A stretch of 62,857 nt of DNA, the filler included, from Klebsormidium nitens (lineage: Eukaryota > Plantae > Klebsormidiophyceae): NCBI GenBank assembly GCA_000708835.1. It is 11 parts of 11 records of this genome, joined end to end, with 100 filler letters (N's around TTAATTAATTAA, not from the genome) between each part and the next. Parts side by side here need not be neighbours in the genome. Positions count along the whole stretch, not along the records: positions 51,796 to 62,857 come from DF238142.1; 10 more parts are not named here. One strand, 5' to 3'. The translations under genes were made by a program, and so were the position numbers. Under the pieces are notes generated by a model. It saw only the letters and a program-made list of their open reading frames with translations. It ran no database searches and was not told the origin of the DNA. Positions 1,512 through 62,857 of this stretch are shown piece by piece. Positions within the stretch are counted from its first letter, which is position 1. Each line of letters begins with the position of its first letter.

Positions 1512-1611
1512 NNNNNNNNNNNNNNNNNNNNNNNNNNNNNNNNNNNNNNNNNNNNTTAATTAATTAANNNNNNNNNNNNNNNNNNNNNNNNNNNNNNNNN
1601 NNNNNNNNNNN
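1512..1611. other. Artificial 100-bp contig-joining spacer (first of ten)
   Basis: N-run + TTAATTAATTAA (stops in all six frames) + N-run, 100 bp each time. Others at 3980-4079, 7505-7604, 9907-10006, 15068-15167, 22002-22101, 26647-26746, 30017-30116, 32984-33083, 51696-51795. Confidence 0.97.
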
Positions 1612-3041: not shown

Positions 3042-3977
3042 ATGCAAGTCATTCGCAACAACTGGGGCACCGAATATTCCGGCAGTAGGGTCAGATTCGC
3101 CGTAAACCCCAGGATTCGGCACCTCATGTTTCGCCGCGGCATGCGACTTGCGGACTGGTTACGTAACCGAGACGCAACCCCAAGTACGAACACATGGCCT
3201 TCATCTGCCAGACCGAGGGTCCCGTCCAGATTCATGAAGATACTCATAGCTATACAACCGCTAAGGAAAGAGGGGGAGCAACAGTCGCCGCCTTCAAACG
3301 CAATGGGTTGGGACGGAGAGGTCCCCAGGATCGAGGTCAGTGCTGCTGCCATTGCGATTGCAGGCGGCTTTGACAGACTCTGCAACGACATATTCATTCC
3401 TCTGGTAGCCCCTTATGGGGGAGGGCTGCTAAAATTCACATACTGTGTGCTTGAAAAACCAAACCCTACCACACAGCTCGATTTGCAAGCCCAAAAAATA
3501 ACTTTTAGCGAGGAGTACAGCCAGCTCAGGTTCCTGCAGAAGGGCAAGGTGCGGCAAGAGTCGCTCAAGCACTATCAAGAGCAACACGACACTGGGCTGG
3601 ATAGTGCTGAGTCGCTTGCTGAAGCAGTAGAGGACGGCTTGAAATTTTACCAGAAAATTGGAGAGCAAGGGGGGGATTATGGATTACCACAGGCAACGTG
3701 GTATGCATCTGATTCAGAGGGCAAAACTGCGGGAATGGGCAAAAAGGGGAGCAAGAGTGTAGGACATCTCTTTGTTGACAATCTCAGGTACCTTTTTCAG
3801 TTTGCCTACGTCATGATTGGCATCACGGTGGGGATGTTCTACGTCGGCTACAGGAATACCATTGCCGCGTTTCATACTGAGGATGTCCAGCTCGAGAGCC
3901 TAAACTACCTCTTTGAAGGGGACGCTAAGCAGTGGCTCATCCTTAATGGACTATGGTCTGCTACAGTCTTGGTGTGA
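3042..3977 (+). CDS. JmjN + JmjC domain protein, KDM4/KDM5-like histone demethylase family (3' part missing at contig end)
   Basis: JmjN-like VPRIEV...IFIPLVAPYGGGLLKF; JmjC core WYASDSEG...GITVGMFYVGYRNTIAAFHTEDVQLESLNYLFEGDAKQW, matching the KDM4 pattern GVNTPYLYFG...[22 protein letters not shown] with the HxE iron ligands intact. The third His ligand is not in the contig. Confidence 0.85.
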   Translation: MQVIRNNWGTEYSGSRVRFAVNPRIRHLMFRRGMRLADWLRNRDATPSTNTWPSSARPRVPSRFMKILIAIQPLRKEGEQQSPPSNAMGWDGEVPRIEVSAAAIAIAGGFDRLCNDIFIPLVAPYGGGLLKFTYCVLEKPNPTTQLDLQAQKITFSEEYSQLRFLQKGKVRQESLKHYQEQHDTGLDSAESLAEAVEDGLKFYQKIGEQGGDYGLPQATWYASDSEGKTAGMGKKGSKSVGHLFVDNLRYLFQFAYVMIGITVGMFYVGYRNTIAAFHTEDVQLESLNYLFEGDAKQWLILNGLWSATVLV

Positions 3978-9727: not shown

Positions 9728-9822
9728 CGAATTACGGTACGCGTGACCGTCCGATAAGACCCACGTGCACCGCGTACGAGGGAACCGTCCGGTAAGCTTT
9801 CGAGACTAAGCTTATGGCCGGC

Positions 9823-10006: not shown

Positions 10007-12160
10007 TTCTCCCACGGGGTCTTGCCGTGCACGCTCGAGGGCACCCGGTTCCGCGTGTAGTTAGCGGTAACCATCGCTTCCGCCCACAACTCCGGGTCCA
10101 ATCCGGCGTCCTCTAGCAAAGCCCGCCCCCTTTCCTCGAGCGTCCGATTCAACCGCTCCGCCGAGCCATTTTGTTCGGGAGAGTGCCCCGCCGTGGTCCG
10201 TTTCACCGTCCCTTTCTTGCCAAGGAGGGCCGTCATTCCCTCGTTGACGTACTCCCCACCCCGGTCCGTTTGCACCGACTTGACCTTCTTTCCGGATTGC
10301 AACTCCAACCGGGCAAACACGCTCTCCGTGACCGCCGTGACGTCGCTCTTCCGCTTCATCGGTTGCACCACCGAAAGCTTGCTATAGTCGTCAAGGAAAG
10401 TGGCCAAGTACCTACTCCCCCCCTTTGCCGTCATTGGCATGGGCCCGCACACGTCCATGTGCACTAGCTCGAGGGGCTCCGTACTCTCCTTAGAGTCCGA
10501 CTCCTTGGGGAACGGCGTTCGGGTATGCTTCCCCATGATGCAAGGCTCGCACAGTACGGTCTTCTCCTCCCGAAACGCCTCAGCTTTTACCCCCACACCC
10601 CGGACCGACCCCCCCTCCACCATCTTGGCCAAGCTCTCGTATCCGGCGTGCCCCAACCTCCGGTGCCACAACACCGGGCTCTCGGCTTCCCTCACGAGCA
10701 AGCACGTGTCCTCCCACGTGGCCTTCGGTTGGCAAACAACCGACATGCCCTCCACGTTTTCCTCCGCCCGAAGCACGATCTCTCCGTCCACGGACACTTC
10801 ACACATCTCCCCAACAAACACAACCGCGGCTCCTACCGCGGTGGCTTTCTTCACCGAGCAAAGATTTTCCGCGACACCGGGAACATCCGCCACCTCGCGG
10901 AGAAGGTTGACCCGCTCTCCCGACGGCGTCTCACACCGCAGTTCCACGGTGCCAACCCCGTCAACCTCAAGGAACCCCTTGTTCCCGAACCTTATTCTCC
11001 GAGCCCCCGGCTCAAGCATCTCCAACGTCGAGAAGGAGGCTCTGGACCCGGNNNNNNNNNNNNNNNNNNNNATCTCCCACGGGGTCTTGCCGTGCACGCT
11101 CGAGGGCACCCGGTTTCGCGTGTAGTTAGCGGTAACCATCGCTTCCGCCCGCAATTTCGGGTCCAATCCGGCGTTCTCTAGCAAAGCCCGCCCCCTTTCC
11201 TCGAGCGTCCGGTTCAACCGCTCCGCCGAGCCATTTTGTTCGGGAGAGTGCCCCGCCGTGGTCCGTTGCACCGTCCCTTTCTTGCCAAGGAGGGCCGTCA
11301 TTCCCTCGTTGACGTACTTCCCACCCCGGTCCGTTTGCACCGACTTGACCTTCTTTCCGAATTGCAACTCCAACCGGGCAAACACGCTCTCCGTGACTGC
11401 CGTGACGTCGCTCTTCCGCTTCATCGGTTGTACCACCGAAAGCTTGCTATAGTCGTCGAAGAAAGTGGCCAAGTATCTACTCCCCCCCTTTGACGTCACC
11501 GGCATGGGCCCCCACACGTCCATGTGCACTAGCTCGAGGGGCTCCGTACTCTCCTTAGAGTCCGACTCCTTGGGGAACGGCGTTCGGGTATGCTTCCCAA
11601 TGATGCAAGGCTCGCACATCACGGTCTTCTCCTCCCGAAACGCCTCGGCTTTTACCCCCACACCCCGGACCGACCCCCCCTCGACCATCTTGGCCAAGCT
11701 CTCGTATCCGGCGTGCCCCAACCTCCGGTGCCACAACACCGGGCTCTCGGCTTCCCTCACGAGCAAGCACGTGTCCTCCCACGTGGACTTTGGTTGGCAA
11801 ACAACCGAAATGCCCTCCACGTTTTCCTCCGCCCGAAGCACGATCTCTCCGTCCACGGACACCTCACACACCTCCCCAACGAACACAACCGCGGCTCCTA
11901 CCGCGGTGGCTTTCTTCACCGAGAAGAGATTTTCCGCCACACCGGGAACATACGCTACCTCGCGGAGAAGGTTGACCCGCTCTCCTGACGGCGTCTCACA
12001 CCGCAATTCCACGGTGCCAACCCCGGCAACCTCAAGGAACCCCTTGTTCCCGAACCTTATTCTCCGAGCCCCTGGCTCAAGCATCTCCAACGTCGAGAAG
12101 GAGGCTCTGAACCCCGTTATGTGTTGGGGAAGCCCCGGAGTCAACAATCCACCTCCCGGT
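10007..12160 (-). CDS. pol: Copia pol: protease, GAG-pre-integrase and integrase core, present as two variant copies either side of a 20-N gap
   Basis: WHRRLGHAGY, CEPCIxGKH, LVHMDVxGP, YLATFxDDYSK, TDRGGEY, PEQNGSAERLNRTL. A 1-nt frameshift follows WIVDSGAS near 12131. Confidence 0.93.
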
Positions 12161-12303
12161 CTCCAACCCTTCCCCGGCTACAAAAGCAACCCCTTGCCGG
12201 CCCCCGGTTTCCCCCTTCTTTGGGCAATCCCTCTTGAAGTGGTCCGGGCTACCGCAAATGTAGCACTTCTTTCCCGTCTTGGGCCTCTCGGGCTCTTGGG
12301 GCC

Positions 12304-13639
12304 CTAAACTGCACTCCCTGGCCTCTCAAAGTGCCCGAGCTTCCGACACTTGTGGCAAGCCATGGAAGCCTTCCCCGGGCCTCTCTTGCCCTTCCCCGCA
12401 AAGACACCACTCTTGGCAGCATAGGCTACCACCGTTGCCGAGCCCGAGGCCCCAAGATCTTGCTCCCCTGACAGCCCATGCCTCTGCTCAAACACCTGCA
12501 ACGTGGAAAGAATCTCCTCCACCGAGCCTAGCTCCTCCTTGGACGACGTCAACACCGTTACCAGCCCCTCAAACCGGCTAGTCAACCCGGCAAGCACGGT
12601 AAAGGATAGATCATCCGGTTTCATCTCAACACCGGCGGCAACCAAGTCCCGGTAAAGGTCTTGTGCCCTACCCACATACCCGGCAACGGACTCACCGGAC
12701 CTCATCTTGAGGGTGCTCAACTCATGCCGGAGGGACAACTTCCGAGCCGCACTTTTGCCCTTGTAGGTCTTTTCTAGTGCGTCCCAAGCTTCCTTGGCAT
12801 TCTCAGCAGCTAAGATTGCCCCAAGGTGTTGTTGCCGGACGTGCAAGCCTATCAAAGCTCTTGCTTCCTTNNNNNNNNNNNNNNNNNNNNAGATGTAGCA
12901 CTTCTTTCCCGTCTTGGGCCTCTCGGGCTCTCGGGGCCCTGACCTGCACTCCCTCTCAAAGTGCCCGAGCTTCCCACACTTGTGGCAAGCCATGGAAGCC
13001 TTCCTCGGGCCTCCCTTGCCCTTCCCCGCAAAGTTGCCACCCTTGGCAGCATAGGCTACCACCCTTGCCGAGCCCGAGGCCCCACTGTCTTGCTCCCCTG
13101 ACAGCCCATGCCTCTGCTCAAACACCTGCAACGTGGAAAGAATCTCCTCCACCGAGCCTAGCTCCTCCTTGGACGACGTCAACACCGTTACCAGCCCCTC
13201 CAACCGGCTAGTCAACCCGGCAAGCACGGTAAAGGATAGATCATCCGGTTTCATCTCAACACCGGCGGCAACCAAGTCCCGATAAAGGTCTTGTGCCCTA
13301 CCCACATACCCGGCAACGGGCTCACCGGACCTCATCTTGAGGGTGCTCAACTCATGCCGGAGGGACAACTTCCGAGCCGCACTTTTGCCCTTGTAGGTCT
13401 TTTCCAGCGCGTCCCAAGCTTCCTTGGCATTCTCAGCAGCTAAGATTGCCCCAAGGTGCTGTTGCCGGTGTGCAAGCCTATCAAAGCTCTTGCTTTCTCG
13501 GTCCTCTCCGCATCACCGGCCGGGTCCGTTATTCCTTTCCACAACTTCTTGTGTGTCAAGAGGAGTTGCATCCTCTGTGACCACACCGTATAGTTGTCAA
13601 CATCTAGAGGCTCTATATTGACCTGAGTCCTTCAGCCAT
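12304..13639 (-). CDS. gag: Copia gag (duplicated across a 20-N gap; small frameshifts near the 5' end)
   Basis: ATG at 13639; N-terminal LDVDNYTVWSQRMQLLLTHKKLW; AKEAWDALEKTY; zinc knuckle CHKCGKLGHFEREC. Confidence 0.9.
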
Positions 13640-13856: not shown

Positions 13857-14291
13857 TGTTGAAAGCAAGCGCCTTAGAGCGCGTTTCAAGTCAAGCACAA
13901 CTACTAGGAATAAGTAACCAATACAAGTCAATCGTCCAAGTCATAAATCCGTGGCTAGGTCTACTTGGTCGAGTCCAACTCTAGCTCTATGTGAGTCAAC
14001 TCAAACATCAACGGCCTAGCCTCCAAGATTCCACAAAGATGCTTATCTAACGGTCCACACTGGCCTAGGGGGTACCTACCACTAGTGGGGGTAACTGCCA
14101 GTGGGGGTAACTGCCAGTGGGGGTAACTGCCAATGGGGGTAAATGCCAGGGGGTAATTGCCAGTGGGGTAATTGCCAGGGAGTAATTGCCAGGGGGTAAT
14201 TACCACTCTATCAAACTCAATGAAACGGCTACGGAATCATCTAGGATCTTAGGGCGTACTCACACAGTAGTAGTACTACCTAAATCCAACA
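13857..14291 (-). repeat. 5' LTR of the Copia element (435 bp) with an internal 8-copy, about 15-bp minisatellite (14085-14205)
   Basis: TGTTG at 13857 and CAACA ending at 14291; internal units GGGGGTAA(C/T)TGCCA. Confidence 0.88.
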
Positions 14292-22684: not shown

Positions 22685-23658
22685 GCTAGAATGCTAGAAA
22701 AATAAGGCGCCCTAGCGCCAAAGTGAACTTCTGCTTGAATTTCTAGCGGCGAGTTGGAAATGAAAGCTACGCAACTCGCTGCAAGGGTTTTATAGTCGAA
22801 TTTCCTAGTCTGCAGCTAGGTTTATTATTATCGAAAAAGTCTTATCGAACTATTCAACACTATTATCGCACTCTAGCCTAGTCGATAATAGTCTAGTTTT
22901 GCGCATCATCCCAGATCGAAGGTGCTTGGGAATTACCTCAAACGCTGAGCTGGCAGGGGCATGCTGGCGACAGCATCGCCAGCATCTGCCACTGATGACG
23001 TCAGTAAAGGTTTGGATGATCCCGCATTTTGAAACTTGAGAGCGGTAAACCTTGGCACAACCCGGCACTGGCTCGCGGGGGCGGCCTGCAGGCTTGTGCC
23101 GGGGCGGCGCGAGTCTCAAATCCCACCCAACTCTCTCGGCCGTCCGATGGGCAGGGTTTCTCCGAGCGCCGTCGATCGGCGATTCGGCTGAACTGCACAG
23201 AAGGTGCCCGGTTTGGCCGCGACCACCATAGGCTATGCACCTCAGCAAGCTGAAACTTACCCCAGAAGCCTGTACGGGTGTAGGTAGACTCTACAGTAGC
23301 AGCCTGCTGGGGCATCGGAGGCGCCTGAGTCAGCGAGCAACCCGCCGTGACTCGTGAGTGCGCTGAAGGGGCGCTGGAGTGCCAAAGAACAATGTGGGGC
23401 GGCATTTAAAAGTGAGCTCCAGATTTTGCAGCAGCTCCGGATCAAGCCGCCGGGTGTGTATGTGCAACTTGTCATGTCTCTGGCATCGTTCAATGATCTG
23501 CGTGAATCTCTAAGTCACCAATAGACATGACTCTGATAGAGTCGAGTAAATTTTTGAAGTGTTGTCAAACAGCCGGATATGAGCAATTGCACGTACTAAA
23601 AGCCAACTACTCTCCAGCCCCAAGCCGTACACACTGTAACTGATAGAACGAGCTTGCA

Positions 23659-24360
23659 ACAAATTGCACTGGCTTTTGAAGCTTAAATGTATAGAACAAG
23701 GGTGTAGATTGACAGAGGCCTTCTTGGATGCGGGCTTGGATGATTGTTGGGTTGTTGGGTGACGTTGTAGATGGATATGGAACGAGCTTCAAACAATCTG
23801 CGCCCATGCCGAGGTGGTCTCTGGTCACTGTAAATGATCAAGTATTATGCAAAAAGTCTGTAATTGATGAACGAGCTCCAAACAATTTGCGCCCATGCCG
23901 AGGTGGTTTCTGGTCACTGTAAATGATCAATCGAACTTTTGACAAATTGCACTGGTTTATGAATCTTGATGTATAGAACAAGGGTGCAAATTGTCGGGGG
24001 CCCATTCCAGGTGTTCTGCGAAAAAAACGGTAATTGATTGAACGAACTCAACCAGTGACAAATTGCACTGGCTTATGAATCTTGATGTATAGAACAAGGG
24101 TGCAAATTGTCAGGGACCATCCCAAGTATTATGCGGCAACTTGGAAAACTGTAATTGATTGTTCACAAACTCAGTCAGTGACAATTTGCACTGGCTTATG
24201 AATCTTGATGTATAGGACAAGGGTGCAAATTGTCAGGACCATCCCGGGTGCTATGCGGAAAAACTGTAATTGATTGAACGAAGTCAGTCAATGACAAATT
24301 GCACTGGCTTATGAATCTTGATGTATAGAACAAGGGTGCACATTGTCAGGGGCCATCCCA
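23659..24360. repeat. Tandem array of 113-123-bp units, each with a 57-bp core bounded by 13-bp inverted repeats
   Basis: TGACAA(A/T)TTGCAC-31 nt-GTGCAAATTGTCA cores at 23940, 24056, 24179, 24292 and a diverged copy near 23660. A separate 49-bp duplication lies at about 23793 and 23882. Confidence 0.92.
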
Positions 24361-24716
24361 AGTATGATGCGGCATGGCCGGGTCCGGGCACTTTTGGCAC
24401 GGTGTACCCAGTGCTCGCAAATAGTTTTCTAGAATTCTACTGATTAGCAGTGGTTACGTGCCATCAATCACAACGGAAAAGTTGATGGCGTGGTCGTCGT
24501 CCAAGTTGATGGTGGGTCAACTCACAAACAAACGCTTTGAACAAACTTGATGCAATTCTAACGAGGCCCTTTTACTTGCAGGTATAGCCAAAAGGTGCAA
24601 ATGCATGACTCAAAGAGACTCAATTTCATCCATGCGCACATGGCATGGTCATAGCTCCACGAAGCAGCTCGATGGCAAGAAAGTGTCTACTAGCTTGCAA
24701 GCTTGCAGGCAGAAGG

Positions 24717-25299: not shown

Positions 25300-25386
25300 C
25301 AGAGTGCACTTTGAGCGGGTCGTACATGCTTAGGGGTTTCTGTGGGGTTACAAAACTGGTGTTCACAAACTTAGGGAGACCACGAT

Positions 25387-26637
25387 GTGCTCAAAACATC
25401 AAGTCGTTTTTTTGCTGACAGGATGGACCTTTCAACGCCGTCTGAAGGCCTCAAAAATCCCACGAGCACCGTGCTGCTTGCGTCAACCACCCCAGCAGCC
25501 TCAGCGGGCCTGCACGAGAGCCTGAAGGCCGGTCAAGCCGTCAGGAGTTGTGCGGCAGTCCACTTCCAAGGCCTGGCTCCAGCCTTCAGCGACATCAAGA
25601 GCGTCCCGGCGGCCGTGCCGCCTTTGCCAAACGCGGGAGGCGTCCGTGGAGGCCGGCCCTCGTTCGCGGCCAAGCATGGTGCTGCAGACTTTGCCTTCGA
25701 CTATGGACTCGCCTTCAGCTTGCGGCCTGCCGGGGCCTTTGCTCGGGGCGGCTTTGGCTCGACGTGCATCGGGCGCACGTGCGGCGGGAAGGGAGCGGTC
25801 TACGCCCGGGGGAGCGAACCCTTTATCTGGCCGCGACAACGAAACCGGGGCGGCGCAGTCATTTGTCGGGGCGGTGGGGGGCATGTCCTGTGCTTGCGGT
25901 GTGTGGAGGCCCAGTACGAAGAAGAACGCCCCTTTGTCTCAAGCGCGACCGGGTGTCCCGTTCCTCAGCAAGAGCTCTTCACCAAGTACGAAGCCTTTCC
26001 TGAAACAAAAGAGCTTCGAGAGGTACGGTCAGGAGAGGCGGCGAGCGAGGGCGCCTACCAATTCTTCGTGCAGAGGAGGGACCTCGCCTCTTGCCCGTGC
26101 TGTCGTGAGCCCAAGGCCGCCTTGGGGCGCGGTGTCAAGAGAGCGCTCGAGCAGGGGCCGAGCCCATTGGAGCTCGGGACGGTGGCGATCCTTTCAGAGT
26201 TGAGGCGAAGCAAGATCCCTCCGATTGCGGTTGCCCCCGGCCTGTTCCTGGTCTCGTGGTTGGACCTTTCCAGTGGGCGCCTTCAGGACATTTCCGCCAC
26301 GGATCGGGGGGTCGTCAACGTCCCCCGACTCGTGAAGGTCGACCACATGGGCAACTTCAGGTGCTTGTGCGGTCGGAAGGCGTGCCGGGATCATGAGATG
26401 GGGTTGCTTCAGGAGACCAGGTCCATGGGCGGCTGGTGGCAAAACGGGGAGGCCATCTTCACCCCGTTTGACGACAGCCGTCCGTTGGTGCGGGAGGTCA
26501 CGAGCGGCGTGCCTTGGGTGTTGCCGCTGGACCAAGGCGGGTTCCTGGGGGGTGCTCTCTTTGGGCTGGACGCCGAGGCGTGGAAGGGCGGGCCGCAGCT
26601 CCGACTGGTTGTCGTGAGCAACCCCGGAGAGGTGTGA
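25387..26637 (+). CDS. Cys-rich hypothetical protein with SWIM-like zinc finger (possible transposase N-terminal region)
   Basis: 416 aa GC-rich ORF with CxxxxC, HxxCxxC, CPCC and RCLCGRKACRDH (CxC-x4-C-x2-H). Confidence 0.5.
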   Translation: MLKTSSRFFADRMDLSTPSEGLKNPTSTVLLASTTPAASAGLHESLKAGQAVRSCAAVHFQGLAPAFSDIKSVPAAVPPLPNAGGVRGGRPSFAAKHGAADFAFDYGLAFSLRPAGAFARGGFGSTCIGRTCGGKGAVYARGSEPFIWPRQRNRGGAVICRGGGGHVLCLRCVEAQYEEERPFVSSATGCPVPQQELFTKYEAFPETKELREVRSGEAASEGAYQFFVQRRDLASCPCCREPKAALGRGVKRALEQGPSPLELGTVAILSELRRSKIPPIAVAPGLFLVSWLDLSSGRLQDISATDRGVVNVPRLVKVDHMGNFRCLCGRKACRDHEMGLLQETRSMGGWWQNGEAIFTPFDDSRPLVREVTSGVPWVLPLDQGGFLGGALFGLDAEAWKGGPQLRLVVVSNPGEV

Positions 26638-32397: not shown

Positions 32398-32560
32398 CGT
32401 TGAACTTAGGTAGTACTCCTATTGTGTGAGTACGCCCTAACATCGTAGATGATTCTGTAGTTTTTTGATTGAGTTCCATGGAGTGGTAATTACCCCACTG
32501 GCAATGACCCCATTGGCAATTACCCCACTGGCAATTACCCCAGCAGTGGTAGTTGCCAGA
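32398..32560 (+). repeat. Partial LTR homologous to the 13857-14291 LTR, opposite in orientation to the adjacent decayed Copia
   Basis: CGTTGAACTTAGGTAGTACT...GTGTGAGTACGCCCTAA...GAGTGGTAATTACCCC matches the reverse complement of about 14130-14291, including the minisatellite. Confidence 0.85.
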
Positions 32561-50643: not shown

Positions 50644-51949
50644 GGATGTCTAAGAAGGTAGAAAAGTCAGCTCATAGGCGTAGTTTAGTGCTTGCAGGAC
50701 GTAACCAAGATACGGAATCTTAGAAACATTGTTGAGCAGCGTAGCCTATGTTGAGCTGAGGCTGCTATGGCCTGGTTCGCATGGAAGTTGCTCGTTGTTT
50801 GGGAGGGGTTGGACGTCCTGCTTTTCCTACATTTTCTGGGAGAAATTGGGGCTTGTTTGGTTTGTGGAATTTGCTTCAAAGCTAGAGGGGAGCCGCCCCT
50901 TTTGATTGGCCTCACCTTTTGTCTTCGACCTGCAACAAGAGCAGCTAAGACGACAGAGTGACTCCATTTCTACTTGAACGTCTGTAAGAGTGAAGATAAA
51001 ATACTCTCGATAGCAAGTTTTCCCATCTCAGTAGGGTGTGTGAATTAGGGAACTATGCAAAAGTACCAGCGTAACACTACATTTGCCACCATTTCCACCA
51101 TGCTTGCAACATGATGTTGAGAATTCACAGCATGATGCCTCACATGGTTTGAGCTTTTCATCAAGCAACGCCTGTAGCCAAGCACTCATGCACGTGCAAT
51201 CTTTTGGTGCGCTCATCGTGTTGCTCTGAGTTGCTCTATATACATACTTGAAGCGTAGTTAAAAGGGCCGTTATATATCTCCGATATCATTAGTCGGCAA
51301 AAGAGAACGCAACAGAACTAAAATACCGGTACTAATCATGATAGCACCTCTTTTCATCAGGGCAATTAACGGGCATGCGCATGGGCTCCACTTGAGGATC
51401 ACGTCAACTCGAGTGACCCAAAGGCTTAGTATTAGAAAACACGTAGTTACCAGTCGCTCGCTGACATGTGCTGCAAGAGTGTTTATAATACAGTTTAAGA
51501 TTTGGGAACCCGAATTACTTATTAAGCCGATTTAGTAAGGTCGAACTTTCCCTTATCCGCAGATTCAAAACCCTATTACCCGTGGGACAGAAATGTGAAG
51601 ACGTCTTCATGCATATCTCATGCTTCGCTCCATCTTTTTGCGATCCGTCTTTTGCACATGAAAGGATACATCAAAAGGTACCTCGTAAACTTTAGNNNNN
51701 NNNNNNNNNNNNNNNNNNNNNNNNNNNNNNNNNNNNNNNTTAATTAATTAANNNNNNNNNNNNNNNNNNNNNNNNNNNNNNNNNNNNNNNNNNNNGCTAC
51801 CGGGGGATCCCCGCGAGGGGCTCGGAAAGCTAGCGCCGTTACATCATATAGGACTTTGCTTCTGTATTCATGGCCAAGGATGCGAGGAAGGCGAGCCTCT
51901 ATACCCAAATGTGATTCACAGGTGTTCCGACTCTGATCCCAAGTCTTCA

Positions 51950-54900
51950 CGTGCCTTCCCTGCAGTTCCACACAGTCTCCTTTGCGATGAGTGCACCTTT
52001 CCCGCAACCTTTGCGGTGCGCGGGGGCAAAGAAGGGGGCAACCTCAAGTGCTTTTGCGGTGTGCATCGCCTGTTCATACCTGGTTGCTTCAAGGTTGAGA
52101 CGGCCCGGGCAGGTGAGTTCTATGCTGCTGTTGTGTCGGCGCGCCGTGGCCTCCACAATTTGAACCCTGCACGGGTCACTCGTCCTAGAGCTGTGCTAGG
52201 TCCAAGCATGCGAATTTGCAAGTTTGCAAGTGTACATAATGGTTATCGACCACAAGCCTGGACCTGTTGTGCATGTAAGCGCTCGTCACTTGGAAAAACA
52301 TGTTCTTCGTGCCCTTTCTTCAGAGTGGGCACGTGACTGCGAAGTGTTCAAGGTAAAGAAGGAGCTGGCGCGGGCGCTTGACGAGGAGGCGCGGCTCAAG
52401 GGCAATCGAGGTGAGGGTTTGTAAGCCTCCGGACAGTGCCGCAGAAAAAACGTGCCTCTTGCTTTGACGATCCTTGATTCGGTCCAGCTTGGATTCTGCG
52501 GCCAGTGCAACTACGGAAAGACTGTCAGGCTCTCCTCTATGCTGCCTCCCGTTAACCCTGAGAATGCTCATAGAGCTCGGAACCATTTGAGCTTGGCGCT
52601 GAGTCTGCTGCGAGTTCTCTATGTGTCATGCTCGGTCCAACCACCTTCTCTCTTCTCCACAGGTTGCAAAGGTTGCAACGATTGGCAGCAAAACGAATGC
52701 TGGTGGGATCCAACTCCCAAAAGCAGAGACCTGATTGGTAAGTCATTCTCTGGACGAGTCAATTCTGGCCTCATTCTGACGGACAAGAGGTCAAGCCTGG
52801 GCACCAAGTCTAGCGCGTGCCTGGTCACTCATTTAGGAGAGACAAAGTCAGGTCCTTGGTTTGCTCAACCTGGTAGCAGGACACTCAATTGGAGACTGAT
52901 CCAACTTGTTCAATTGCAAGAACTTTTGGTGAAAGCTGCCTGCTTCTGCGTAGCCGCTCTCCTTCGATGGTCGTGTGACCGGACAAGGGTCCCCAGGGGC
53001 GTATGGACGTCGGAAAGTATTCTGTCCGTTGCCCTTTTCTGCAGAAAAGCTCTTGATTATCGGCGGGGTTGAGAGCAATCCGGGATTCTCATCGACCGAA
53101 GGGGACCGTCCCCTAGCATCAGGAGGGGACACCCAGTGGACGACGTCGGCGCGGCCGGAGTAGTCGCTCAGCCGCCTCTTCACGATGTGAGCAAGCACCC
53201 GTCCGGGAGTGCTTTCAGAGTGATTATCGTTGTTGGATCAGGCCCCAGACAATTTGCACTGCCTTGAAGAAGTGACTGTATAGAAGCCGAAGTGCAAATT
53301 GACGGCAGCGGTCGGCTAGTGTTTCTGGATCAGGGCCCTGACAATTTGCACTGGCTTGAAAAAGCGATTGTATAGAACCCGAGGTGCAATTTGTCAGCCC
53401 ATGCATCTGGCTCTAGATCACGTTGGTTTCGAGGCAATGCGCAATTGATCGCCCCTCTGTCCACATAAACCGACTCCCAACGACGCTGTGTGCCGCTTTA
53501 GAAACGTCAAACGCCCAAGCTAGGGTCGAAGTCCAACAGATTCCGCGCGCATCTTTGTTGCAGGCAAGAGACCGCCCTGAGGATTGGCAACACGCCAGCG
53601 GAGACCAGTCGCAGGGATTGGCATCCGGTGTCGGCACGAAGAGGCCGCCAGAGCAGGTAAAAGCCCCACCCACAGGTTCACTGTAATTCCCTCCACGAGT
53701 TTTTGAAGCTGCGTTTCGTGATCAGGCTGCCAAGATTTGGTCGTTGCTTCAGGAAGCTGGTCAGCACGTGGGCCTGAATCGCATCATCCAACTTATTGGA
53801 TAGGGGCTTGTGTACAGGTGTCAGCAGAGGCAGAACCGCCGAGGAGGAGGGGGAGGAGGAGACTCGTCAAGGCTCTCTGAGCTTAGGGGCGAAGCCCCTG
53901 CAGACCTTCGCACAGGCAGCGTGACCGAACCGATTTCTGGCGCCCCCATACAGTGAGCACCTATGCTGGGATCCATTCAAGACACGCATGGCGCATGAAG
54001 TCGCGCATCAGTCTCTGTCAGTTGCCTCTACGGAGCTTGAGCTCGTCACAGCGGGGCTCTTTCAGTTATTGATTGCTTGTGCATCAAGTCATAGGTCTGT
54101 ATGACGGACCCTCTAAGGCTTGCTTTCCTTCTCTTCGATATCAGGAAAGTGGAAGACCTTGAGGAGGACCTCAGTGGATCGTTCGAGCGGGCCGCGGGCA
54201 GCCGCCGCGATGGGCGCAGGGCCATGGAGGAGCAAGTGGTTGCCGACTTCTTTGCAGAGCGCAGGCAGCAGCGAGAGGCTTGCGAGGCAAGAGAGGAGGA
54301 GACATTTGGCCCAATCTCCTTACCAGAGCGACATGATCGACATGATCTGGACGATCAAGAAAGGTGAGGCCCTGCTCTAGTATCCACTGCCTCCTTTAAA
54401 GGCGCTGTAGGCGATGAAGTCTTTTATCATGATCAGATAACAGGTTCTGCTCTCGCCCCCAAGCCGACCGCTTTGTTTCGATGTTTTGAATCGGGCCCCA
54501 AACCCAATTCTGGACTTGGTCTCGAGGTGTGCCCATTCGTCTCCGCCCGCTTTTGCAAAGTGGGTCATCAGAAGTTGATCGCTTCTTCCTACTGCAGCGG
54601 TGGTGCCGGGGCCCGAGAGCAGGAACTGCAGGGAAGGCGTAGCCCAGCAACCCCAGCTCCCGACCTGGTGAACCCGTTGCTTCCTTCCAAAAACTATTGG
54701 TGCATCTCCATTCTCGAGTCTGTGGACGGTCTTTTGGTGTTTCACTTGCATGATTTTGCGCTCAAGGCAAATCTGGCACGATCATGGCACTTTGACAAGG
54801 CATGCAGCAGCAATGCTTCAATTCCTCAATGCTTGCTGGAGTATTTTGCCTACCACCATTGGGCATCCTGACCGTTGCGGTTGCTGGTGCTCGCCCAAGG

Positions 54901-55450
54901 TTCACCCACTTTGCAATCTCGTTGCCCTTTCAGGCACGGAGCCAGGAGAGCGAAGCAAGGACGTCGACGCCGGGGGTCCAAACGACTGGTCGGCCGGCGT
55001 CGAAAAAACGACGGTAAGCTCTTTGACCCAGTATTTCTGCTCTAGACTTGTCATCTCCGACACAAAGGTGACGCTTGTGTGCTGGATGCCGCCAATTGCT
55101 CCCTTAGGTACCGCGAGCGTCAGGGGCGTCAAGGGTATCACTTGATTTCCCCAGAGTTCTTCCAAATTCCATAAGTGGCGAGCCGTCAATCGACAGTAGT
55201 CAAAATGCGTACAGCGTCTTGATACGCTCCTTCTTCTTCCGCATCTGCAGCAAAAAGGCGAAAGCGAATCCTGTCCCCATGGACGAGGCGGCTCGGGAGG
55301 CCGGTCGAGCGGCTGCGGCAGCTCATCTCCAAGCTGTGGGGGCATTGAGGCCCTCGAGAACGCAACGCGAGGGGCAAGCCGTTCATCAAACGGAGCTGGG
55401 TGATTTTGAAGGCCCGCCTCCTGCACCCCCCCTCGTAAGTTGCCATGGAG
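51950..55450 (+). CDS. Scattered hypothetical exons of unknown gene(s) upstream of the primase-helicase gene
   Basis: Segments bounded by plausible splice sites: CDEC...CFCGVH (about 51985-52110), 52270-52410, 53045-53163, 54140-54363, 54935-55014, 55250-55420. Exon chain not resolved. Confidence 0.35.
53247..53396. repeat. Two diverged copies of the 57-58-bp inverted-repeat core seen at 23.9-24.3 kb
   Basis: GACAATTTGCACTG...TGTATAGAA...GTGCAAATTGAC (53248-53303) and TGACAATTTGCACTGGCTT...TGTATAGAAC...GTGCAATTTGTCA (53339-53396). Confidence 0.88.
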
Positions 55451-55574: not shown

Positions 55575-55990
55575 GGCTGTTTTGGGGGGCGCGAGGTTGT
55601 TTTCGGGTCTGCTCTGGGCACCTGATTTCGAAGCCGTGGTCAAGTTGATTGAGGTCGCAGGCAGGCTGTTTTGGGGGGCGCGCTTAGGTTGATTTCGGGT
55701 CTGCTGTGGGCCTGGTTTTTGGGGCTGGTTTGGGGCCGCGGTCAAGTTGGTCTTGGGGAGCGCAGTCAGGATGTTTTTGTGCCGCAATTAGGCTGGTTCC
55801 GGGTCTGGTCCGGGCCTGATTTGGGGCTGATTTCGGGGCTGGTTTGGGGCCGCGGTCAAGCTGGTCTTGCGGGCGTGGTCAGGCTGACCAGTTCTGTGCT
55901 GTGGTCAGGCTGGTTCCGGGCTTGTTGGTTTGCTCTTGGCCTGGTTTGGGGCTTTTTTTGGGGCCGTGCTCAAGCTGATTTGGAAGCGCA
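55575..55990. repeat. Degenerate G/T-rich intronic minisatellite (core GGGCCGCGGTCAAG), recurring at about 60435-60535 and 61465-61850
   Basis: GGGGCCGCGGTCAAG(C/T)TGGTCTT at about 55733 and 55846; variants at 55961, 61474, 61563, 61610, 61768, 61791. Confidence 0.8.
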
Positions 55991-56170
55991 CTCAGGCTTG
56001 TCTTGTGCCGTGGTTAGTTGGCAGGCAGCCCCGTGTAGCTGGCGCGCTTTAATCTGAAGTTAAGTTTCAAGTGTTGTCAGCCATGCGGCTTTGCTGACAA
56101 TAGGGGCGTTGTAGGTAGCAAGCCTCATCGCTGCACAACCGACCAAGTTCGAACCCCTTCTGTTGTCTTT

Positions 56171-56844
56171 TTGGCACAGGCGCTGGTGACGGACGCTCCC
56201 ATTTCAAACGTCGGGGCCCTGGTCGACCGCCTGAAGGCCAAGCGGGACGCCGAAGAGGCGGCCGCGCGAGAGGAGCGGCTCAAACGCTACGGGCGCACGC
56301 GACCCCTAGGGGCTCCACGTGGGACGGGGGATTATGCCTCGGCCCGGGCCCTGGACCAGGACCCAAGCCCCTCTTCCCCTCTGCCCTCTCTCGTCCTTCC
56401 TTCCCAGGAGGAAGACCCCGCCCTGAGCGCAGCGCAGCCCCCCACAGCAGCCCCCTCTTCACTGGTCGCGGAAGATGAACGGGCCCCGCCGTCGCCGCCG
56501 CCGCCGGCCGACCGGCCCCCCGTAGACGAAGATCCGGGTTCGGTTTCCCTGTCGCAGCCCCATGAGCCCCCCTCCCACGCCGGGCACCCACCCTCTCCCC
56601 CCCCCGCTGACCAGCCCCAGGAGCCCCTTGTCATAGCCCCGCTTCCCGACGAAAACCCACGGCCCGAGGTGGTCCCCGGTCAGCCCCCAGCAGTCGCACT
56701 TTCCCCTCCCTCCGCCCACCAGGAGTAGGCGCCCGACGACCAGGCGCTTGCAGCCGACCTGTCAAACCAGCCCTCGAACACAAGTCGGCCCACTACAGCT
56801 GAGCCGTCCGCAGAACTGTCGTCCGCACTTCCGCCCACGGAGGC
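56171..56844 (+). pseudogene. Pro-rich exon with an in-frame premature stop
   Basis: Frame stays GC3-rich and open after TAG at 56726-56728 (QE*APDDQALAADLS...) up to the N gap. Confidence 0.5.
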
Positions 56845-57108
56845 NNNNNNNNNNNNNNNNNNNNNNNNNNNNNNNNNNNNNNNNNNNNNNNNNNNNNNNN
56901 NNNNNNNNNNNNNNNNNNNNNNNNNNNNNNNNNNNNNNNNNNNNNNNNNNNNNNNNNNNNNNNNNNNNNNNNNNNNNNNNNNNNNNNNNNNNNNNNNNNN
57001 NNNNNNNNNNNNNNNNNNNNNNNNNNNNNNNNNNNNNNNNNNNNNNNNNNNNNNNNNNNNNNNNNNNNNNNNNNNNNNNNNNNNNNNNNNNNNNNNNNNN
57101 NNNNNNNN

Positions 57109-57642
57109 CTGTGGTCGAGACGTGGAGAGACGCGAAATCGATATATAAATTACGGAAGCGCCTTAGTGTGCATCCAGTCGACAGCTTTTTGGATGCATAG
57201 CCGAGCGGCTAAGGCGGTCGGCTTCCGTACTGTTACAATGGTATCAGAGGTCGAGACCTCCACGACGGAGGTCGCGGGTTCGAATCCCGTTCGAAGCATT
57301 TCGGCGCCTTCTTGGTCGCAAGTCTGAATCGGGGCAACTCGGGTCGCACCGGCGACTCCCGGGCCTGGCCTAGGTTACGCGGACCTAGGGGGGGGTTGTT
57401 ACGCTCGAGGACGAGCTTGGTCCAAGGGGGGAGGAATGTAACGGCGGGTTAGCGGTGAAACGCGTGAACCCGTATACGGTCCAAAGCGGAACGAAAATCG
57501 ACGCGATAACCCGGCCGCGACGCGCGGACGGCCGACGCGAAATCGATATATAAATTACGGAAGCGCCTTAGTGTGCATCCAGTCGACAGCTTTTTGGATG
57601 CATAGCCGAGCGGCTAAGGCGGTCGGCTTCCGTACCGTTACA
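57109..57642 (+). mobile_element. Terminal-repeat retrotransposon in miniature (TRIM) carrying a tRNA-like sequence
   Basis: 5' LTR end GTTACA at 57237 (its start lies in the N gap); PBS TGGTATCAGAG 57239-57249; about 200-bp non-coding interior; PPT AAGGGGGGAGGAA 57424-57436; 3' LTR 57437-57642 with TGTAACGG...CCGTTACA; 57129-57237 matches 57534-57642 except one base. Confidence 0.9.
57191..57298 (+). promoter_or_regulatory. Split tRNA-like Pol III type-2 promoter: A box in LTR, B box after the PBS
   Basis: A box TAGCCGAGCGG 57198-57208; B box GGTTCGAATCC 57277-57287 inside a T-arm, preceded by a CCTCC/GGAGG variable arm. Acceptor stems do not pair, so this is not a functional tRNA gene. Confidence 0.75.
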
Positions 57643-60600
57643 CTCCAAGCTTGCGAGGCGCACGGTTCAGCGCGGCCCCCGAAGCAAGAGTTCAAGTATA
57701 GCGTGCACGAGGTGCTGGAGGGGTTCTACTTGAGGGGGCTGGAAGCCAGGAGGGCATTTGGGAAGGCTTTTGGGTGCTTCTTGGAGAATCCCCCGGACGA
57801 CCTGAAGCCGAGTGTTGAGCTCTTGCGGAAGGACGGCGGATCCGACTACGTGTGGGACGGGTCCGTCTACGGGCGTCACCGGTGCTTCCGAATGCTCAGG
57901 TCCTCCAAGTTTGGGGACCGTCTTCGCTCCCTCATCCCCTCCGAGGGCAGCTCTGAGGCGATCGCTGACCACCTTGTTTGTCTTTACACGGAAGCGGAGC
58001 TGGCTGGTTCCACCGAGATCAGCGCCGACCTTCTCAGAGAGTGGGCGTCCGCGCGGCGCGACCCTCTTGCCCCGGCCCGCGTGGGGGCCTTCCGGCAGAG
58101 CGCGCTCGCCCTCGACGAGGCGAGCACCTCGGAGGGGCCCGGCGAGGACCTGAGCGCGCAAGAGCGCGCCATCCTCCTCGCCCGCTACCAGGAGGACCAC
58201 GCAGGGGCCGAGACCGGGTGGTGCAGGAGCGGCCGGGGCTTTTCTTCGTCCACTTTCGCGCGCCCCAGCCCACGTGTTGCATTGCGGGCAGGCGCCACAC
58301 GTCCCCAGGCAACCAGAACCCGTACGTGATCTACAAGCGAGACGAGCCGCGCATCGCCCGCTACCAGTGCTTTGCAAACAGTTGCAGGTAAGGCGCCCCA
58401 GTAGTGAGCTTGAAATCTGGAAAGCGCGCGGCATGGCTTGGCCGTCAATCTGCACATGTCGTTCTTTACACCCAATTCTATAAGGTGGTGCAGATTATCA
58501 AGCTCCCTTAAGCGGGTTGCCCGGGTTGCTTCCTTGAGTACGATTCTTTCAAAAACTATTTGAGAAAAAGGGGCCTGCGCTGCGACTTTCACACATGCCA
58601 AACCTTAGATGCAGATTGTCGAGCTCCTTACGCAGGGTCCGGTTCTAGCAACGGGTTTGGTTTCAGAGTGGGGTTGGTCCGAGCTCTTCAAAAAAAACAT
58701 CCGGCAGTATGCATGCATGTCGTTTCTACAGCAACATTGAAAGAGAATAGAATGACGAATTCTTTGAGTAGGGCTGGTCTCAAACGTTCGATTTTTGATT
58801 TGTGACCATTTCGTGCAGTCAGGCTGGCGCGTGCTAGGCTTGTTGTCGTGGGACCAATCCTGGGCATGAAGCCTGGCGCGCGCCAGGTCAGTTAGTGCAC
58901 TGCCACGCGCCCTGTTGGTTTGTGAGCCTGGCGCGCGCCAGGTATATTAGTCAGTCGGTCTGGTGCCCGTCTGGTTAGTTAGTCAGCTTGGCGCATATGC
59001 ACCAGACTTCGTGGATGGGCACAAAGCTTTGACACCAAACTTGGCGCGTCTCAGGTTGGTTAGTGAGCCTGGCGCGCGCCAGGTTGATTAGTTTGTCAGC
59101 ATGGCTTGTAACAAGCTTAATGCCCAGAACACCAAGTTTGGCATATGCCATCTGAATCAACATGTGAGCCTGGCGCGCGTCAGGTAGCAAGCCTGGCGCG
59201 CGTCGGATCTGTTAATGGAGGCTAGCGCTCTCCAGACTTGATGCTTTGGACACCAAGCTTGGCGCACGCCAGGTCAATTGAGCTGGCGCACGCCTGCTCA
59301 ATGATGCAGATTGGTTCACGTCAGACGAAGTGCTCAGTCACCAAGACTGGGCACACTGTCTGGTACGCGCCAGCTCAGTTTGTAGACATGGCGCAGGTAC
59401 TTGGTATGTTGTTGACTGCACCGTTCGCCCCATCTTTGCAGGGGCGAGTGCCGGGTGCTACCCCTGGATGTCCGCACCGCGCTGGGCTGGACAGACTCGG
59501 GACTACGAGGAGAATCTGAAGATGCGCCCTTACCCCGTCTTCGAGCTCGCCCGTCTTCGCAAACGCACCATCCTGGTGTCCGCCAAAAAGGGGGTCGGGA
59601 AGTCGAAGGGTTTCATGGAGTGGCTGGTGGCCATAGTAGTCAGGAGAAACCCCGGCCTCTCCTTCGTCCTGATCGGGGCCAACATCTCGCTGTCCCGCAA
59701 GTACCATCAAGATCTGGTGGACGCGGGCGTTCAAGGCGTGGTGCTGTACCTGGAGGCGCCCCCAGGGCCAATCACTGCCTCTCGTGCCGTGGTCTGCATC
59801 AACTCCATTCACCGCGTGCGCGCCAAAATGGACGTCGTGGCGTTGGACGAGATGGACATGGTGCTCACCAACCTCAACTCTGAGGTCATGAGCCAACGGG
59901 GCCGGGTGCTGTCCTGCTTGGAGGCGGCTGTGGCGGGGGCGAAAGTCGTCATCGGCATGGACGCCAACATCGACTGCGCGCGAGTGATGGAGTACCTCTT
60001 CATGGCGCGGCCGGATGGGGTCCTCCACACCATCCGGAACAGGGGCCTGTACCCGGCCAAGCGGCAAGCGACCATCCGGATCTTTCCGCCAGGGAGCGGG
60101 CTGCTCGACTGCATCGGCGCCGCAGTACGGGATGTGCTGGACAGGGTCGCTCGAGGCACGAAAGTCGTCGTGAGTTCTTCTTAAGATCCTCCTAGCACTA
60201 ACAAGCCTTAGCACAGCGCGCTCGATTTCATCCCTGTGCTCTTCTCAAGCACAATGAGAGAGCGTCTATGTCCAAGGTATAAGGCAAGCCATGCGTAGCA
60301 TCTTCTCTGCATATTCACCTTGTGGCTTTGGGGATAGGTGTAGCATGGAGCAGCTCTTTCTGTGCACTCCACCAATGATGCATCGGAGCCTAGTGGAAAC
60401 TGTCTTGCCAAACATTCATGACACGGTTTGTCTTCTGGGGCCGTTTTGGGGGGCAACTTTGGTGAAGGGCCAGTTCGGAGGATAGTTTTAGGGCCAGTTT
60501 TGATGAGCCTGAGAGTCGGTTTGGAGCCAGTTTCAAATTGAGTGTAGGCCAGTGCGAACGGGTCTCTGTAAGGAACGATCGCATCAGTCGCTTTTGCCTT

Positions 60601-62836
60601 AGGTCTTTACGTTCTAAAAAGCTGACGACCGTGCTCTCGACTCTTGTTGCGCAGTGCCCGTCGACCTCCAAGCGCTTCGTGAAACACCTCGAACACGATT
60701 TCAACGTCGAGAACCCACCCTCCGAGTCCGATCGACGCGGCGTTTTCCTGCACGCCGACAAGAGGTCGAAAGCCGACGAGGAGTTCTTCCAGAAGGCGAT
60801 GGCCGACCCTGACACCTACTTGGAAGCGGAGTGTGTGGCTTTTTCTCCAAAGCTCGGCCCAGGTGTTTCGAAAGAGAAGCCGTACGCTGAGGAGACGGTC
60901 GCCTTCGCCCTCAACAACCTCAACGGCCCCGCCTTTGAGACGCTGCTCCAGCAGCATGCTCGCTTCCGGACGGTCACTAACTCCACCATCTACTACAAGC
61001 AGGCGGTGAGCACTGCAGTGGACCTGCCGCGCTCTACAGAGGCGGTCTTTCAAGCCATCGAGCGGGACGACAAGCAGATCGTCAAGATGCTCGGCGACGC
61101 GGCCGGCTTCCAGTTCCTGAGGGGTTCGCAGGGCATCTGCGACCGCTCCTCGGCGAGCTGCGTCTTGTACGCAAACAACATTCTGGCCAAGGTGGAAAGC
61201 TATCTGGAGTACGTGCCGAAGCTGAAGGCCGACCTCGAAAAGCAGGGCTACGAGGTGACGGTCGAGCACGTCGAGCCAACGTTGAGACTGCCGAGTAGTG
61301 AGGCGAAACCTGAAAAGCGCCCGGCATGGCTCGGTCGACAATCTGCACAGGTTGTTCTTTATAATCAAGTCTATTAGGTGGTGCACACAGATTGTCAAGC
61401 CCCTCAGGTGGCCCTTACAGTTGCAATGATCAACTAGTAGGCTTGAGTAGGGTTAAGCTAATGGACTGCTTTTGGGCCGCGGTCAGCATGATCTCGGGGC
61501 AAGGTCAGGCTGGTTTGGTGTTTGCTGTGGGCATTGGTTTTGGTCGGGTGTGGGCTTGGGTTTGGGGCACGGTCAAGCTGTTTTGGGGTGGGGCTTCAGG
61601 CTGATTTGTGGCCGCGGTGAGGCTGGTTCCGAAATTGCTGTGGGTCTGGTTCCGGGGCAGGTTTTGGGGCCGTTAACGAGCAGACTTGGGTGCGCAGTCA
61701 GGCTGATTTTGAAAGCGCGTTTAGGCTGGTTCGAGTCTGCCGTGGCCTGGATTTGGGACTACTTTTGGAGCCGCGATCAAGTTGGTCTTTGAGGCGCGGT
61801 CAGGCTGGTTCTGGTGCGGTGCGTAGTCTGGTTCCGGATTTGCTGAGCCTGGTTTGGCGGATGTTTTTGAGGTCCTTAGAACTTGCAGAGCATAACGTCT
61901 TTTGAGGAGTCGAGATTTAGGGCTCACCCCGCCACCGGACTGTGTTTGCTCCCGTGGAATGATCGGACGTCCCACCATTTCCTTTCCAGGACGGCGTCGG
62001 GAGCCCGCCCCCGGAGGTGCCCCTCGGCTTCGACGCGGAGCCGGAGCTCCTGACCGCCGAAGAGTGGCGAGCAAAGTACATCATCAGCTCGGAGCAGTAC
62101 GAGATCCTGTGCGAAAGGCCTGAGAACCTGAGCCCAAAGGAGCAGCTCCAGGAGTTTCTGTTCGAGATGGTCACGAAGGAGTACAAGGTCGACCCCAGCC
62201 GGGTTGATCACGACTTCTACACCCGCTTTTGCGCTGACGAGGACGAGGCGAAGGCGACAAGAGAGGCCCACGCAAACTATCTCAGGTAGGCGCCTCATTT
62301 CCCAGCTGTGCCCCGTCTCTGAAGCAAGAATCGTAGCCCTCTTGCCGCCATCCACTTCTGTCCAAAGTGAACGATTAGTGAACTCCAAGTCTGCAGCATT
62401 TGTCCAGGGCCAAGGTTTCCGCTCATCATTCTTCTTCAGCGGCAATGACGTCGTACGTCCGAAGTCTCATTTTGCTACCCCTCTGACCCTTCTCGTGACT
62501 TGCAGGTTTCGTGAGCACCGCTTCGATGCCCTCGTCGCGGACCTGGACAGAGCACGTGGGCATGCCAACGAGGAGGGCGTGGTTCAGGAGTCCGTTCAGG
62601 AAATGCGCGACCCTGCCAGCCGTGTGCCGTTTGCGGTGCGCGTGCTTGCCTTTCTCGTTGAATGCAGGGAGGAGCAGCTGAATCATGAGGCGGAGCGGTG
62701 GGAGGTCTCGGATGAGCGCGTTCAGGCTGCCTATGCGGAGCACATCGGGCCCAGCAAGACCCGGTTGAAGACCATCTTCAACCTGTATTGCTTTGTGCAG
62801 CAGACCTCCAGACCCTCGCAGGCTGCCAATGGAAAG
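57643..62836 (+). pseudogene. Spliced AEP/PrimPol primase - UL52-type zinc finger - UL9-like SF2 helicase fusion gene, disrupted; continues past the window end
   Basis: Exon 57643-58387: KYSVH, WDGSVYGRHRCFRMLRSSKFG, CCIAGRRH..N...YQCFANSC. Exon 59442-60169: MRPY, SAKKGVGKS, VALDE, GMDAN, GTKVV. Exon from 60655 to about 61254: CPSTSK, FSPKLGPGVS, QQHARFR. Exons 61990-62285 and 62506-62836. Frameshifts near 58210 and 59490. Confidence 0.85.
58820..59310. repeat. Intronic array of palindromic CCTGGCGCGCGCCAGG motifs
   Basis: Perfect 16-bp palindromes at 58872, 58927 and 59068; about 6-7 degenerate copies nearby. Confidence 0.88.
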
Positions 62837-62857
62837 GTGAGGGAGAAGAAAGCTCGG

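Follow-up and report, generated by a model that had tools for sequence, protein, structure and literature searches.

A decayed member of an intron-bearing primase-helicase gene family in Klebsormidium nitens, in which one leader with a 2A-like peptide precedes different replicases

The subject of this study is a gene of the streptophyte alga Klebsormidium nitens in which an archaeo-eukaryotic primase (AEP), a zinc finger and a UL9-like helicase of superfamily 2 (SF2) are fused. It lies in the part from 51796 rightward (DF238142.1) of the window, by which we mean the whole joined stretch of 62,857 nucleotides, filler included, from assembly GCA_000708835.1; all coordinates are positions along that stretch. 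We have found that this gene is a pseudogene and belongs to a K. nitens family of at least 13 loci, in which one type of leader with a 2A-like peptide heads four types of replicase, one of them non-homologous to the rest. Most of the loci begin with this cysteine-rich leader and the 2A-like peptide, and in intact members a long linker leads on to the AEP, the zinc finger and the helicase. In the best reading, the family belongs to an old, intron-bearing element that is expressed as a polyprotein and exchanges its replicases. We hold with moderate confidence that this is a selfish DNA element and that the family members encode its replicase, the window copy being a decayed one.

Results

Replicase types behind one leader

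In the window gene the visible leader exons code for a Cys/His motif, then for a stretch predicted to be helical and lastly for the 2A-like peptide LLIIGGVESNPG. When the leader was used as a query, 9 of 3349 candidates were matched, all of them from K. nitens. Three of these are AEP-UL9 fusions of a clade that we call A, or 5' halves of such fusions (P0007, P0161, P0162). Two (P0115, P0163) carry the AEP of a second clade, B, about 41% identical to that of clade A, in partial models without helicase exons, and P0164 is a distant AEP-UL9 fusion. In the remaining models (P0158-P0160) the leader precedes a non-homologous replicase, namely a Prim-Pol joined to a D5-type primase-helicase of superfamily 3 (SF3). 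The link to D5 was seen at three loci, and the similarity between clade B and the D5 copies extends about 120-150 residues beyond the 2A site.

The leader tree, which has 9 rows with one less than half filled, separated clade A and P0164 from clade B and the D5 copies with support of 100/100, and a tree constrained to join A and B was rejected (p-AU 0.0006). In the primase tree, a quick tree of 64 rows for which 45 of the 90 other full-length rows had been dropped at random, A and B were joined (SH-aLRT 100) and P0164 fell outside, in a place that its long branch makes unsure. The conflict between the two trees calls for at least two exchanges, one of them across non-homologous helicase superfamilies.

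The non-canonical 2A core has been described as GxExNPGP with upstream leucines (PMC13405545), and its final proline as essential (PMC12338488); here and below, statements on published articles refer to the sections accessible to us. GxExNPGP is present in P0007, P0161 and P0162, and a CxxSNPGP variant in P0115, P0158, P0159 and P0163. The 20-mers of the direct paralogs P0161 and P0162 are identical to two screened rows in file 3 of PMC13405545, which this preprint supplement classes as 'skipping' and 'skipping with reduced protein'; the classes are model-assigned, come from a fluorescence sort in human HEK293T cells, and stand in a file without organism names. The P0007 20-mer is present in file 1 of the same paper, where it has no class, and the Cys-containing variant is absent from the file with the reporter classes. 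A chance origin of the motif was rejected, as GxExNPGP is expected about 1e-4 times per 2000 residues and is positionally conserved. In the alga, leader and replicase may be released as two proteins through ribosomal skipping.

The leader also bears a weak resemblance to the EsV-1-7 motif, which had been presumed before the profile comparison was made. Two of six leaders matched the EsV-1-7 profile (PF19114), weakly and with a best E of 0.022. EsV-1-7 motifs, which are putative zinc fingers, occur in giant viruses, in brown algae and also on an Ectocarpus transposase (PMC12477816, PMC7457493). No PDB match and no usable Atlas match was obtained for the leader, and profiles built from Prim-Pol, the AEP N-terminus and the 5'-most leader part of the paralogs revealed nothing convincing in the window. 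The Ndc10 domain of the K. nitens protein GAQ92643.1 is presumably Crypton-type and tyrosine-recombinase-like. This protein, whose top match is 'Ndc10 domain', is listed with a skipping-class 2A-like peptide in supplement file 4 of PMC13405545 and is a candidate partner gene. Supplement file 3 of PMC12338488 contains a further Klebsormidium protein (UPI000B56B393) with two GGVESNPGP motifs.

Another part of the window holds an intact D5-like primase-helicase frame of 733 residues (7607-9805, minus strand; D5_N E 6e-12). It shares 27% identity with P0160, which carries the leader. Upstream of it there are a gap and a copia element, and neither a Prim-Pol nor a leader exon was found on that side. 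At 1608-3974 on the plus strand, 4-6 kb from the D5-like gene, there are weak matches to a KDZ transposase (E 7e-4) and to JmjC (E 2e-3), and these regions and the D5-like gene may possibly form one giant KDZ element with a primase-helicase, in which case the KDZ protein would be a candidate mobilising enzyme.

Copies, transcripts and introns

A search with the helicase exon returned 6 of 3111 candidates, which were the window's own model and five K. nitens models of 69-84% identity. Altogether 14 named K. nitens models, on contigs of 13 different lengths, were assigned to the family. They represent at least 13 loci, none of them on the contig of the window gene; P0161 and P0006 are consecutive on one contig and together make up one gene. 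The copies are 65-85% identical to each other and several are damaged, as P0004 stops within the helicase, P0007 has no helicase and P0003 has no primase. With so many loci the gene is not a conserved single-copy orthologue, a possibility that had been raised in a sequence-only reading of the window preceding this work. A cellular single-copy PrimPol orthologue was likewise rejected, the family being multi-copy with a fused helicase. The locus tags of P0005, P0007, P0115, P0158, P0159, P0162 and P0163 suggest that these are some of the first genes on their scaffolds. Four models of the family are partial, and the window gene also leaves its scaffold at the end. Such placement could reflect an assembly broken by repeats or a subtelomeric place.

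Contigs of paralog type from RNA-type runs of three studies skip the GT-AG introns 55434/56180, 58387/59442, 60169/60655, 61280/61990 and 62285/62506. The class "RNA" is a guess, no run being recorded as RNA; in a DNA run none of these spliced joints was seen. The three phase-consistent GT-AG junctions of the sequence-only reading (58387/59442, 60169/60655, 62285/62506) were each skipped in 3 of 3 RNA-type runs. One RNA-type run further joins 52112/52324, 52410/52672, 52737/53045, and 53186 to either 53564 or 53818, and overlapping contigs show paralogs spliced from leader to helicase. As these contigs, mostly 85-95% alike to the window, carry paralog bases, it is the paralogs that are transcribed, and the evidence concerns them and not the window copy. 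In paralogs primase and helicase lie on one transcript, as the fusion proposed earlier implied, and the alternative of two separate genes was rejected.

A profile search among 1.84 billion representatives gave 567 matches at E<=0.001, and both domains were present in 104 of the 164 proteins retrieved. The gain of introns proposed in the sequence-only reading is supported. Three intron positions are common to the window gene and to exon-sized open frames of only 28-45% identity. One lies after the zinc finger (P0018, P0021, P0023), one at the KVxV/xPST boundary (P0020, P0026, P0029, P0031, P0041, P0043, P0079; P0027, P0038, P0063) and one after NYxR (P0027, P0038, P0052, P0063, P0157). The open frames of P0027, P0038 and P0063 continue across the site of the 61280 intron, which is therefore younger. 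In primase and helicase trees alike the intron-bearing members form one long-branched clade; together with the common positions, this indicates that the introns are older than the spread of the family. Scans of metagenome loci, viral contigs and phage records gave no match.

Primase, zinc finger and helicase

All AEP and SF2 motifs named in the sequence-only reading were located on its exon chain. On the primase side these are KYSVH at 57694, DGSVY at 57856 and RMLRSSK at 57889, and in the helicase Walker A at 59579, Walker B at 59843, MDAN at 59957, PKLGPG at 60847 and QQHARFR at 60949. The finger had been given as C-x3-C and is in fact C-x6-H...C-x4-C (58275-58385). Pfam Herpes_ori_bp was matched by the helicase exon with E 6e-17, beyond the family cut-off, and together with SF2 motifs I-VI this places the helicase with the UL9 type. 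The Pfam models PrimPol and UL52, which had been proposed as a check of the primase, did not match. In the PDB, a 3-sequence profile of paralogs found human PrimPol (E 5e-4) besides HSV UL9 (E 1.5e-8), and an 81-sequence profile found HSV UL9 (E 2.5e-44), PrimPol (1.9e-12) and also the poxvirus D5 primase domain.

The AlphaFold (AF2) model of paralog P0002 (pLDDT 84) matches UL9, human PrimPol and poxvirus primase structures, with a TM of 0.67-0.71 over the target for PrimPol, and it matches full-length giant-virus origin-binding proteins over its whole length at 12-17% identity. The best named Foldseek matches are the origin-binding proteins of Bodo saltans virus (E 6e-39) and Marseillevirus (E 2e-33), in agreement with the replicase of large-DNA-virus type suggested beforehand. 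In an alignment of 138 rows, counting only rows that cover each residue, the catalytic residues were near-invariant (D114 in 108/111, H176 in 110/112, D226 in 112/113 and the Walker K in 117/119), and the finger residues C368, H375, C399 and C404 were conserved. The AEP signature, with DxD/E in motif I, SxH in motif II and D in motif III, is complete in paralogs, and the window copy shows motifs II and III. The UL9-like part would be a sequence-specific origin binder and unwinder.

Decay of the window copy

The gene had been taken to start at 57643 and to be a single open chain. It begins at or before 51966, at least 5.7 kb farther upstream, so that the sequence-only reading covered under half of it, and 57643 is the edge of a mini-element with long terminal repeats (LTRs) that interrupts the primase exon. 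The window copy carries two stops, near 53684 and at 56726, and about four frame breaks in all. Three of these are near 53132, 58211 and 59492, and at the paralog junction 61280/61990 the phase is off by a single base. AEP motif I, which is DxD in all paralogs, is absent from the sequenced window DNA of this copy, and either lies in or beside the N gap 56845-57108 or is lost. Both the pseudogene state and the leader with a 2A-like peptide common to non-homologous replicases had been overlooked.

The mini-element has a direct repeat of 109 bases (57129-57237 / 57534-57642), its left LTR being partial, to 57237, and the full right LTR being 57437-57642 (TG...CA). From general knowledge of LTR elements we take 57239-57250 to be primer-binding-site-like and 57425-57436 to be a purine tract. 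The element resembles a terminal-repeat retrotransposon in miniature (TRIM) and is high-copy; its 200-base interior contains a Pol III B-box-like word, and neither a tRNA nor an Rfam family was matched there. The end of a second, different LTR-like repeat lies at the contig edge inside the same gene (Table 1).

The paralogs possess exons upstream of leader exon 1, none of which is within the window. To the right the gene continues past the window end (62857), where about 60 more paralog residues are expected, and it has at least 11 introns.

Table 1. Features of the window gene, from the contig gap to the right end of the window
Position	Strand	Feature	Remarks
51796..51843	-	LTR-like repeat end, inside intron upstream of first visible exon, at contig gap	loose ends at 51843; summed depth is high
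51966..52112	+	leader exon 1 with the Cys/His motif (H-x3-C-x2-C...C-x2-H), a weak likeness to EsV-1-7	71% to P0162 and P0164; 46% to P0158-P0160
52324..52410	+	leader exon 2, predicted helical	RNA-type joint 52112/52324; tblastn to P0161, P0162
52672..52737	+	leader exon 3, first half of 2A-like peptide	joints 52410/52672, 52737/53045
53045..53186	+	exon with 2A-like core LLIIGGVESNPG (53047-53088)	final residue F; one-base frame break near 53132
53564..55434	+	short exons, disordered linker: ~53564-53700 (with stop), 53818-53946, 54143-54365, 54913-55013, 55250-55434	
56180..56844	+	Pro-rich linker and beginning of large AEP exon, up to N gap	83% to P0005; joint 55434/56180; stop codon 56726
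57129..57642	+	TRIM-like LTR mini-element within AEP exon	109-base direct repeat; TG...CA right LTR
57643..58387	+	second and third motifs of AEP primase, followed by zinc finger (58275-58385)	frame break near 58211
59442..60169	+	first part of UL9-like SF2 helicase, with motifs I-III	frame break near 59492
60655..61280	+	second RecA domain of helicase, motifs IV-VI	
61990..62285	+	exon for C-terminal helical domain	
62506..62857	+	final visible exon	

Other features of the window

A degenerate G/T-rich repeat is the same in two introns of the gene (55717-56008 and 61458-61793), and other short repeats were seen at 58914-59104, 53229-53398 and 23632-24374. Paired 44-base N runs around a 12-base spacer with stops in all frames (for example 51696-51795) are contig joins, and distances between neighbours across them may therefore be false. 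A copia-type retrotransposon at 10388-13512 on the minus strand (gag E 9e-22) has duplicated blocks at gap edges and is probably in part an assembly artefact. At 25375-26634 on the plus strand there is an open frame of 420 residues, which contains several clusters of cysteines and matched no Pfam family at E 0.01. An unassigned coding-like segment at 5715-7141 is present in two near-identical copies (96-99%), 904-907 bases apart, and 14120-14290 and 32399-32541 form an inverted pair.

Discussion

If the family does represent the replicase genes of a selfish element, a single spliced mRNA processed by the host would give rise to two proteins through ribosomal skipping. The UL9-like part would bind the origin of the element itself and unwind it, priming would fall to the AEP and zinc finger, and host polymerases would extend, these being proposed because no polymerase gene is linked. 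The leader may act as a DNA- or protein-binding partner produced in a fixed ratio. Replicases would be exchanged through recombination in or after the linker, and new copies would be placed by a separate insertion enzyme as old copies decay like the one in the window. It is tempting to go further and to propose, tentatively, a new class of capsid-less, splicing-adapted, self-replicating DNA element, with leader and primase-helicase made as a 2A polyprotein and UL9-type SF2 and D5-type SF3 helicases swapped behind a fixed leader. Equally speculatively, such a class would parallel Polinton-like viruses and plasmids, apart from its introns, and would have lived in streptophyte algae for a long time.

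Several observations weigh against a selfish element of this kind. The 11 kb from 51796 contain only this gene, with no ends, terminal repeats or target duplication and no integrase or capsid, and no inverted repeat was found near the gene, of which the window includes only the left side. Its upstream neighbour is a host ABC1 kinase, which ends about 1.3 kb upstream of the gene, across a gap, and a transcribed gene of many introns resembles a host gene. An identity of 65-85% between copies gives no sign of a recent burst, and presence/absence polymorphism was not seen. The 2A signal is also uneven, NPGP being intact in 7 of 11 leader-bearing copies, with 3 of 11 ending in NPG-W/F (F in the window copy, W in P0005 and P0164) and the motif missing from the P0160 model, and some similar GG[VI]E peptides are classed as non-skipping or fall-off in file 3 of PMC13405545. 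Finally, the link of the leader to P0164 comes from a single predicted gene model.

Some of the same observations would suit a virus-derived family that became domesticated and serves the host in DNA repair, restart of replication or antiviral defence. Its members would have multiplied by duplication or travelled passively as cargo on giant transposons, and would play no part in their own copying. The old common introns, the splicing of paralog transcripts in three studies and an exon GC content of 0.60-0.66, like the 0.62-0.68 of the host kinase exons, agree with such a history, as does the finding that 16 of 32 enzyme-exon differences are synonymous among the best-supported 40 of about 1020 rows; giant algal transposons, moreover, often carry transcribed accessory genes (PMC12477816). 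We nevertheless consider domestication unlikely, given that many copies are dead or truncated, that non-homologous primase-helicases were exchanged behind a single leader, and that the polyprotein signal is typical of viruses and retroelements. Quite unlikely, in our opinion, is that the mobile unit is the leader itself, as a cassette of promoter, leader exons and 2A-like peptide that lands before resident genes and takes replicases as passengers. Such a cassette could account for K. nitens KFL_013500020, where a leader similar by eye and a skipping-class peptide precede an unrelated C-terminus, and there is a parallel in the Ectocarpus transposase that gained an N-terminal EsV-1-7 domain (PMC12477816). 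However, a random cassette would show no preference for primase-helicases, whereas 9 of 9 matches of the leader search are replicases or 5' parts of them, and the likeness of clade B and D5 copies does not end at the 2A site.

Giant viruses provide the remaining explanation, in which the copies are relics of repeated endogenisation that gained introns later. K. nitens carries core genes of nucleocytoplasmic large DNA viruses (NCLDVs) (PMC5294986), the top structural matches are NCLDV proteins, and about 100 full-length fusions were present among unnamed public proteins. Yet the intron-bearing members are one long-branched clade with common intron positions, no viral core gene was found beside the window copy among 17 long open reading frames (ORFs) scanned, and endogenous giant-virus and Polinton-like virus genes are described as intron-poor (PMC11244446, PMC10120064), which makes this origin improbable. 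The sequence-only reading had left a choice between an endogenised large-virus gene and a self-replicating element. Recent endogenisation is unlikely because the introns are many and old, the exon GC is host-like and a host kinase lies next to the gene on its upstream side; the selfish element stands as the best reading, unproven, and 'self-synthesising' is likewise unproven because no ends, integrase or capsid are linked to the gene.

A fusion of primase and UL9-like helicase, also in an algal nuclear genome, is already known. The origin-binding proteins R8 of Mimivirus and F1055L of African swine fever virus (ASFV), both Nucleocytoviricota, have the same order of AEP, zinc finger and UL9-like helicase (PMC2373305, PMC10653895). 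Unlike these giant-virus fusions, the Klebsormidium family has many introns, a 2A-like peptide and an N-terminus longer by about 900 residues; it is present in many copies in the nucleus and has no viral neighbours. In Ectocarpus a nuclear AEP-UL9 'OBP' was described by Delaroque and Boland in 2008 (PMC2373305), with one intact copy and one pseudogene; unlike the Klebsormidium gene it is a single ORF near viral fragments and has no zinc domain, and the accessible sections of that article mention no leader, 2A or gene family. A giant endogenous viral element is not indicated either, as the window gene has its introns, the host kinase upstream and no core genes among the 17 ORFs. Cellular PrimPol has the same AEP fold and motifs, although to our knowledge it has no helicase, leader or multi-copy family.

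Polinton-like viruses are likewise multi-copy and have interchangeable replication genes, including primase-helicases (PMC10120064). They differ in their capsid, integrase or tyrosine recombinase and often terminal inverted repeats, none of which was found in the window, where no capsid, ATPase, PolB, integrase or tyrosine recombinase was seen among the 17 long ORFs; nor is the window gene intronless, as genes of Polinton-like viruses or Mavericks would be. The 2A or StopGo peptides of non-LTR retrotransposons and RNA viruses have the same GxExNPGP core and upstream leucines (PMC13405545), whereas in Klebsormidium the peptide precedes DNA primase-helicases and is split by an intron. In their accessible sections the 2A papers list Klebsormidium peptides without tying them to replicases (PMC13405545, PMC12338488), and in those of PMC6431247, PMC11244446, PMC10120064 and PMC5862659, which deal with endogenous viruses, giant transposons and the clades of AEP, the family does not appear. 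The undescribed family suggested by the sequence-only reading is not new as a fusion; an intron-bearing, 2A-led, multi-copy primase-helicase family with exchangeable replicases was not found described in the literature searched, which did not include repeat databases and most subscription papers.

What is new is a K. nitens family of at least 13 loci with a common leader, a 2A-like peptide and four replicase types. It was suggested that primase, polymerase and integrase together could yield new large elements (PMC6431247). If the family is a mobile element, it would add a replication strategy to those of eukaryotic DNA transposons, and ribosomal skipping would be seen to serve DNA replicases. 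Orphan Klebsormidium 2A peptides gain a native context, and intact primase-UL9 fusions from a culturable alga may be used to study coupled origin binding and priming.

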